Assembly: GCF_003334815.1 (NCBI RefSeq)
Contig: NZ_QOWO01000052.1
Direction: 5' to 3' (one strand)
Length of the DNA: 22,598 nt
Source: Escherichia coli
GTDB taxonomy: Bacteria > Pseudomonadota > Gammaproteobacteria > Enterobacterales > Enterobacteriaceae
Each line of letters starts with the position of its first letter. Within the stretch, counting starts at the first letter, position 1. This document shows, one piece after another, positions 4,070 through 4,427 of this stretch. A program made the position numbers and the translations under genes. The notes under the pieces are model-generated. The model was not told the DNA's origin and did not search any database. It worked only from the letters and a program-made list of their open reading frames with translations.

Positions 4070-4427
4070 ATGAAATATCAGGTGAAAGATATTTATTACT
4101 GATAAATATGCTAAGGCTGTTAATATTTTTAAGGATAATCTTAAAGAACACTACCATGTTTTTTATGGTGTTAGATTAAGTGAGATTCTTTTTCCTGCCA
4201 GTGAGTATGGCTCTGAACAATTTTTTAGTGATTTTGAAAAGATAAACTCGATTTCATTACCTGTCCTGGTGTTTGATCTCAAAACCGGTGTTCCTGTGAT
4301 TGTCATTAGCCTTGATGATGTCAGTTATTGTGATATTCTGGACGAAACAGATATTGATTTTATTAAATGTGATTCGCTGGCAGAATTGCTTACCAGCGAT
4401 AAGCTGGATGCGTTATTTAAGGATTGA
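4070..4427 (+). pseudogene. Frameshifted small ORF of unknown function
   Basis: ATG at 4070 gives MKYQVKDIYY then a stop at 4100; a start-less frame from 4086 to the stop at 4425-4427 reads ...TDKYAKAVNIFKDNLKEHYHVFYGVRLSEILFPASEYGSEQFFSDFEKINSISLPVLVFDLKTGVPVIVISLDDVSYCDILDETDIDFIKCDSLAELLTSDKLDALFKD; the two join across the run atttatta. Confidence 0.35.

Follow-up and report, generated by a model that had tools for sequence, protein, structure and literature searches.

In IncX plasmids, ddp3 (taxD) is an auxiliary gene for DNA transfer or DNA distortion that is found near the second oriT (PMC3402527, PMC3332091, PMC4222815). This second oriT is carried on a long inverted repeat (LIR) adjoining ddp3 (PMC3332091, PMC3402527, PMC4222815), and the arm of the repeat next to the gene is the oriT copy near the replication gene (PMC3402527). 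In R6K and other IncX plasmids, the gene occupies a defined place in the backbone, in the order repX-repX2-bis-LIR-ddp3-DUF6685-ycxB-parG-parA-res. The same place is occupied by a small broken gene in the DNA analyzed here, a contig of 22,598 nt from Escherichia coli (NZ_QOWO01000052.1), which is referred to below as the window. The sequence identifies the region as ddp3/taxD ('DNA distortion polypeptide 3') from an IncX1 backbone. Our preferred reading, to which we assign a probability of about 0.85, is that ddp3 has been inactivated by a genuine, inherited one-base insertion and is decaying in a young IncX1 lineage, where its transfer partners were not found in the stretches examined.

The ddp3 gene and its lesion

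The native start codon of the gene, ATG at 4070-4072, lies 6 nt downstream of a Shine-Dalgarno sequence (GGAG, 4060-4063) and opens the frame MKYQVKDIYY. As seen in the sequence and its three-frame translation, this frame is ended by TGA at 4100-4102, which is followed by TAA at 4103-4105. Read in the phase of 4071, the +1 frame contains no stop between 4086 and its TGA at 4425-4427; it has the translation KIFITDKYAKAVNIFKDNLKEHYHVFYGVRLSEILFPASEYG...DALFKD, and its first canonical start (ATG, GTG or TTG) in the list of open reading frames is GTG 4269, which gives an ORF of 52 aa. In place of an uninterrupted frame of ~118 codons from the native ATG, there is a stop after 10 codons; the frame is lost after codon 6, and the native start encodes only a 10-aa peptide. 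The features of the region are as follows.

3966-4075, no strand: arm of the IncX long inverted repeat adjoining ddp3, which recurs beside ddp1 in conjugative relatives (PMC3402527)
4060-4063, + strand: GGAG, the Shine-Dalgarno sequence of the native ddp3 start, read from the sequence
4070-4102, + strand: 5' remnant of ddp3, consisting of ATG, nine further codons and TGA; MKYQVK are the first six residues of intact DDP3
4080-4091, + strand: AGGTGA (4080-4085), AAG and ATA (4089-4091), the last in the downstream frame and made by the insertion
4086-4427, + strand: rest of DDP3 (residues ~7-118) in the +1 frame, with the normal TGA stop
4089-4109, no strand: hairpin ATATTTAT / TACTG / ATAAATAT, with a perfect stem of 8 bp to which the inserted T belongs (ancestral stem, 6 bp)
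4090, + strand: inserted T that shifts the frame, as seen in alignments; pattern scans matched the unshifted form only
4269-4427, + strand: longest canonical ORF left, with a GTG start and 52 aa, without the conserved N-terminal two-thirds of the family

The lesion is a single extra T at position 4090 (GA[T]ATTTATT), absent from every intact relative aligned: the window reads GTGAAAGATATTTATTAC, as opposed to GTGAAAGA-ATTTATTAC in the intact alleles. The base is flanked by two A's in AT-rich surroundings that hold no homopolymer, the longest local run of T being 3. Besides T4090, 5-6 substitutions separate the window gene from the nearest intact alleles; 2 of these are non-synonymous, one of them being L20F, which was unseen in the other alleles examined. 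The preliminary description of this DNA had proposed a small gene disrupted by a frameshift in an A/T run, and the single extra T relative to all intact relatives aligned supports it on the frameshift and shows it to be inexact about the run. Its account of an ATG that opens MKYQVKDIYY and then meets a stop agrees with the sequence and the translations (ATG 4070, TGA 4100-4102). The coherent polypeptide that it saw in the adjacent, start-less frame is likewise no chance ORF, as deletion of one base yields a match to DDP3. The comparison with intact homologues that it called for found uninterrupted 118-aa versions in hundreds of IncX plasmids.

With T4090 removed, the 118-aa product scored 164.5 bits against the NCBIfam profile NF041452 (DDP3), an equivalog with a curated cut-off of 140 bits, and residues 1-116 aligned to positions 1-116 of the 116 in the profile. 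The repaired product was 98% identical to the intact 118-aa proteins P0001 and P0002. The family is narrow: at E <= 0.001, a set of 1.84 billion proteins contained only 20 representative clusters of it. At the DNA level, a 601-base stretch around the site has matches in more than 2000 plasmid records, the majority belonging to Escherichia, Klebsiella and Salmonella. The best-matching plasmids are of the IncX1 type, and their intact 357-nt gene, annotated there as 'ddp1: DNA distortion polypeptide 3', is located 3' of two replication-initiator genes and the 148-aa bis, and 5' of a DUF6685 gene.

DDP3 displays the restriction-endonuclease-like core fold of the DUF2726 / PD-(D/E)XK proteins. The Pfam match to PF10881 (DUF2726) is marginal (E = 0.0094), and the positions of the candidate acidic/lysine motif (D...(D/E)xK) vary across the alignment of the DDP3 family. 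As these positions are not conserved, a non-catalytic role in DNA binding is more likely. A sequence search of the PDB with DDP3 found no relative.

Annotations of DDP3 with 141 aa use an upstream in-frame ATG at 4001, inside the long-inverted-repeat sequence. The resulting extension of 23 residues (MTSLTPFRNVCPVTYSRFLLE.F; window 4001-4069) lies within the repeat and for this reason also precedes DDP1/TaxA, at 9211-9279 of locus L007; the same 25 residues stand before DDP1 as before DDP3. Since the NCBIfam profiles for DDP1 and DDP3 both begin at the internal Met, the start that gives 141 aa is probably an artefact of annotation.

Distribution of the allele and its plasmid lineage

Carriers of the allele were found by exact-protein look-up of the neighboring DUF6685 protein, followed by reading of the DNA. 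The stretch 4000-4440 was 100% identical, T included, in 13 of 13 allele-bearing loci from 11 records, comprising QOWO01000052.1 (the window's own, GCA_003334815.1), GCA_024256645.2, GCA_002190155.1, CP167118.1 (142 kb), GCA_047582825.1, GCA_049931345.2, GCA_012869115.1, GCA_047790135.1, GCA_965212685.1, GCA_052152935.1 and the ENA metagenome scaffold ERZ28600277. At least 27 contigs at NCBI, all named E. coli, hold truncated calls made from the allele, with products of 52 aa (13 contigs), 100 aa (4 contigs) and 112 aa (10 contigs). Because the identical allele stands in 10 independent records other than that of the window, the insertion of T4090 is judged to be a real, inherited mutation.

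A sequencing or assembly indel confined to the window's record is accordingly very improbable. Such an error would agree with the databases of finished sequences, as an 86-nt query across the site found no record with T4090 in PLSDB or among the RefSeq complete E. coli genomes (the closest match had 97.5% identity and contained a gap), and a second one-base insertion that looks like a singleton is located nearby, at 6973. The impression of a singleton, or an error, left by the PLSDB and RefSeq searches was overturned by the DUF6685 look-ups: different projects have yielded 10 other independent records with the same T, among them a 142-kb replicon and a metagenome scaffold. The insertion at 6973 is also common to the lineage (ParA of 205 aa, not 206), and the site of T4090 is not a homopolymer. 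Scans with degenerate patterns gave one match in GTDB genomes and nine in metagenome contigs, and all ten were of the unshifted 28-nt form.

The backbone of the lineage, from ~1486 to 7000, shows just 1-3 base differences among members, and divergence is concentrated in a segment at 7-8 kb and in the fimbrial region (12-14 kb). Given the near-identical backbone, we regard the lineage as young and the insertion event as recent. Pairwise dN/dS values for the window allele against intact alleles rest on 5-17 differences, and within-lineage dN/dS is uninformative on relaxed selection since the copies of the allele are all identical. The cargo of the lineage consists of a fimbrial operon and a SPATE-type autotransporter, and the ORFs of the window also include a RelE/StbE toxin, two Rep3 genes, a resolvase and an IS110 transposase. 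The larger of these features are located as follows in the window.

1781-2620 and 2641-3483: two tandem Rep3-type initiator genes
12766-16976: chaperone-usher fimbrial operon (PapB-like regulator, chaperone and 818-aa usher)
17258-21370: autotransporter of 1370 aa, which the annotation of the closest plasmid, pISHS7_3, calls an S6 peptidase (SPATE)

For this one fimbria/SPATE plasmid backbone of the IncX1 type in E. coli, the allele is a convenient marker. Several further properties of this backbone were observed. The second Rep3 gene (2641-3483) has ~50 extra N-terminal residues with a faint MazE/AbrB-like Pfam match (E = 0.25). The parA gene (6971-7618, minus strand) carries the second lineage-specific insertion, at 6973, where a run of three T's becomes four on the gene strand and the last codon becomes a stop; in all lineage records, ParA has 205 aa (...VSTF*) rather than 206 (...VSTFE*). 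A 265-nt inverted repeat, 99% complementary, is found at 8569-8833 and 11522-11786, with its arms 2688 nt apart. It flanks an IS110-family transposase ORF (10384-11337), matched from profile position 81 onward, and an ORF of 314 aa to which the annotation of a related plasmid gives the name 'Abi family protein'. The element bounded by this repeat may be invertible or composite.

The 110 bp that precede ddp3 (window 3966-4075) have a second, inverted copy in conjugative IncX relatives, at a distance of 5.4-6.4 kb. Directly after this second copy of the repeat come DDP1/TaxA (NF041451, 235 bits), the MobP1 relaxase (NF041450, 435 bits), an RfaH-like gene and VirB1. No coding sequence for DDP1/taxA or the MobP1 relaxase (taxC), and no second copy of the long inverted repeat, was found in the window or in six lineage loci read together with as much as 10 kb on either side; the absence of the partner genes applies to the 22.6-kb contig and the 10-kb flanks rather than to whole plasmids or genomes. 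What the flanks of the lineage loci do contain is IS21, anti-restriction, H-NS/Hha or F-type TraT/TraS genes. The same backbone is also present in two further contigs (L022 and L023), where the ends of an insertion sequence abut the 3' part of ddp3 at 4152/4153, at the same nucleotide and in opposite orientations. From the terminal-repeat sequence at the 4153 junction we take this element to be IS30, and one IS30-bearing contig of the backbone was seen in eight samples. The IS30 junctions and the missing partners fit a gene that is no longer needed, and the allele agrees with the notion that a plasmid can do without ddp3 after losing its transfer module. Loss of transfer genes alone does not predict the decay of ddp3, as the closest PLSDB relative, pISHS7_3, is typed as non-mobilizable and yet has an intact ddp3 of another allele.

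Among other ddp3 alleles, many short calls of 'DNA distortion polypeptide 3' (42, 43, 52 and 85 aa) are found on long contigs of E. coli and Salmonella, which suggests that the gene has been disrupted repeatedly and independently in IncX-derived plasmids.

Recoding and initiation around the insertion

Full-length DDP3 could in principle be restored by programmed +1 (or -2) ribosomal frameshifting or by transcriptional slippage. Programmed +1 frameshifting of the prfB type calls for a P-site codon with a tRNA able to re-pair in the +1 frame, beside a stop or hungry codon, and for an SD-like element ~3 nt upstream. The ddp3 allele is superficially prfB-like, as the short ORF stops (TAC TGA T) inside the overlap of the two frames and the SD-like AGGTGA is found upstream. 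The sole place for a +1 shift is GAT ATT TAT TAC TGA, and here the tRNA on the last sense codon, UAC, would find no pairing at the +1 triplet, ACU, while AGGUGA ends 11 nt before UAC, as opposed to ~3 nt in prfB. The shift is also missing from every homologue examined outside the lineage and is thus not conserved. Slippage of the polymerase would call for a homopolymer of ~7 or more A or T at the shift site, and the longest such run in 4086-4102 is 3 (TTT), which is too short. Rfam contains no frameshift element for the region, giving just one sub-threshold match to a snoRNA that was taken as chance, and the RNA folding of 4060-4180 (z = -1.29) is not significant as a frameshift stimulator. 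A promoter scan of 3850-4550 found nothing. Taken together, recoding of the allele is scarcely credible.

A different route to a product would be initiation downstream of the lesion, by which the allele would still make a slightly shortened DDP3 of 112 aa from AUA 4089, or possibly a product from AUU 4095 or 4125. This could occur by direct initiation via the in-gene AGGUGA, or by re-initiation after the 10-codon ORF has ended at 4100. AGGTGA is perfectly complementary to the 3' tail of 16S rRNA, and the inserted T makes an in-frame ATA (4089-4091) 3 nt after it. Annotations at NCBI start at this ATA (112 aa, 10 contigs) and at ATT 4125 (100 aa, 4 contigs), and the loss would be limited to residues 1-6, which are poorly conserved and modelled at low confidence. 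Against this, the annotated starts are choices of software and provide no evidence of translation, and AGGTGA is ancestral coding sequence (CAG GTG AAA) rather than an evolved ribosome-binding site. Ribosomes from the strong ATG 4070 read across the AUA site, and the IS30 ends abut the frame at 4153 in the same lineage. The near-cognate AUA can initiate at ~1-2% of AUG in E. coli (bioRxiv 10.1101/063800), and the yield expected here is ~1-2% of AUG or less. Given this rate and the position of the codon 3 nt after AGGUGA, trace or low-level synthesis of the 112-aa form from AUA 4089 is possible; that the allele makes a shortened DDP3 to any real extent is unlikely.

An extension of the same idea would have the inserted T both break the frame and create the AUA start, so that the lineage keeps a low, re-tuned level of the 112-aa DDP3 and the allele has spread since the reduced dosage suits a plasmid devoid of its relaxase partners. 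We consider this scenario quite doubtful and favor inactivation followed by decay of the gene.

Origin of the insertion and relation to known systems

Quasi-palindrome mutations, which arise by template switching, make imperfect inverted repeats more perfect (PMC7202029). The inserted T is located in such a repeat: the ancestral stem (ATTTAT/TACTG/ATAAAT) has 6 bp, and with T4090 it is extended to 8 bp, with 4089-4096 pairing with 4102-4109 and the new pairs being T4090-A4108 and A4089-T4109. The insertion thereby raises the complementarity of an imperfect inverted repeat by a base that the other arm could have templated. Since copying of the opposite hairpin arm would add precisely this T, the arrangement suggests template switching at the quasi-palindrome as the origin of T4090. 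The gene admits 1054 distinct single-base insertions, of which only 7 (0.66%) put the new base in a perfect stem of at least 8 bp, a statistic devised and computed after the hairpin had been seen. The allele is a tidy natural candidate for a frameshift by template switching rather than by homopolymer slippage.

The combined results suggest a model for the fate of ddp3 in this lineage. A base inserted by quasi-palindrome template switching, the likely origin of T4090, would leave ribosomes from ATG 4070 to produce a 10-residue peptide and stop at 4100-4102, and the remaining 112 codons would go untranslated apart from possible trace initiation. The mutation is inherited and has reached fixation in a young E. 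coli lineage of IncX1 backbones that are almost identical to one another. A plasmid without the transfer partners would presumably lose little with the auxiliary protein, hence the decay of the gene. The preliminary description had left three alternatives side by side, namely a decaying gene, a sequencing indel and translational frameshifting. The first is upheld by the shared one-base insertion and by the intact homologues elsewhere. The second is excluded by the identical allele in 10 other independent records, and the third finds no support, the shift being missing from all homologues and the site devoid of a slippery motif. The importance of the finding is small beyond annotation, where the records of 'DNA distortion polypeptide 3' with 52, 100 and 112 aa would be better marked as a frameshifted pseudogene.

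Set beside the described systems, the locus resembles several of them in part. Compared with the DUF2726 / PD-(D/E)XK proteins, DDP3 has a marginal sequence match, and the catalytic motif positions are not conserved. With prfB, the ddp3 allele shares a short upstream ORF that ends in UGA, a body in the +1 frame and an SD-like sequence upstream; it differs in that the shift is not conserved, the re-pairing codon is missing and the spacing of the SD-like sequence is wrong. The quasi-palindrome mutations of the Ripley (1982) model and of the E. coli lacZ QP reporters (PMC7202029) have in common with T4090 the position at the edge of an imperfect repeat and the templated base. Unlike in the lacZ reporters, the origin in ddp3 is read from the sequence of a natural allele alone, and the short stem is made up entirely of A-T pairs. 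The closest counterpart is the ddp3 (taxD) of R6K and the IncX plasmids, where the frame is intact, whereas that of the window is broken by a +1 insertion after codon 6. The gene is a known one, and its allele in this lineage is an ordinary, lineage-specific frameshifted pseudogene.
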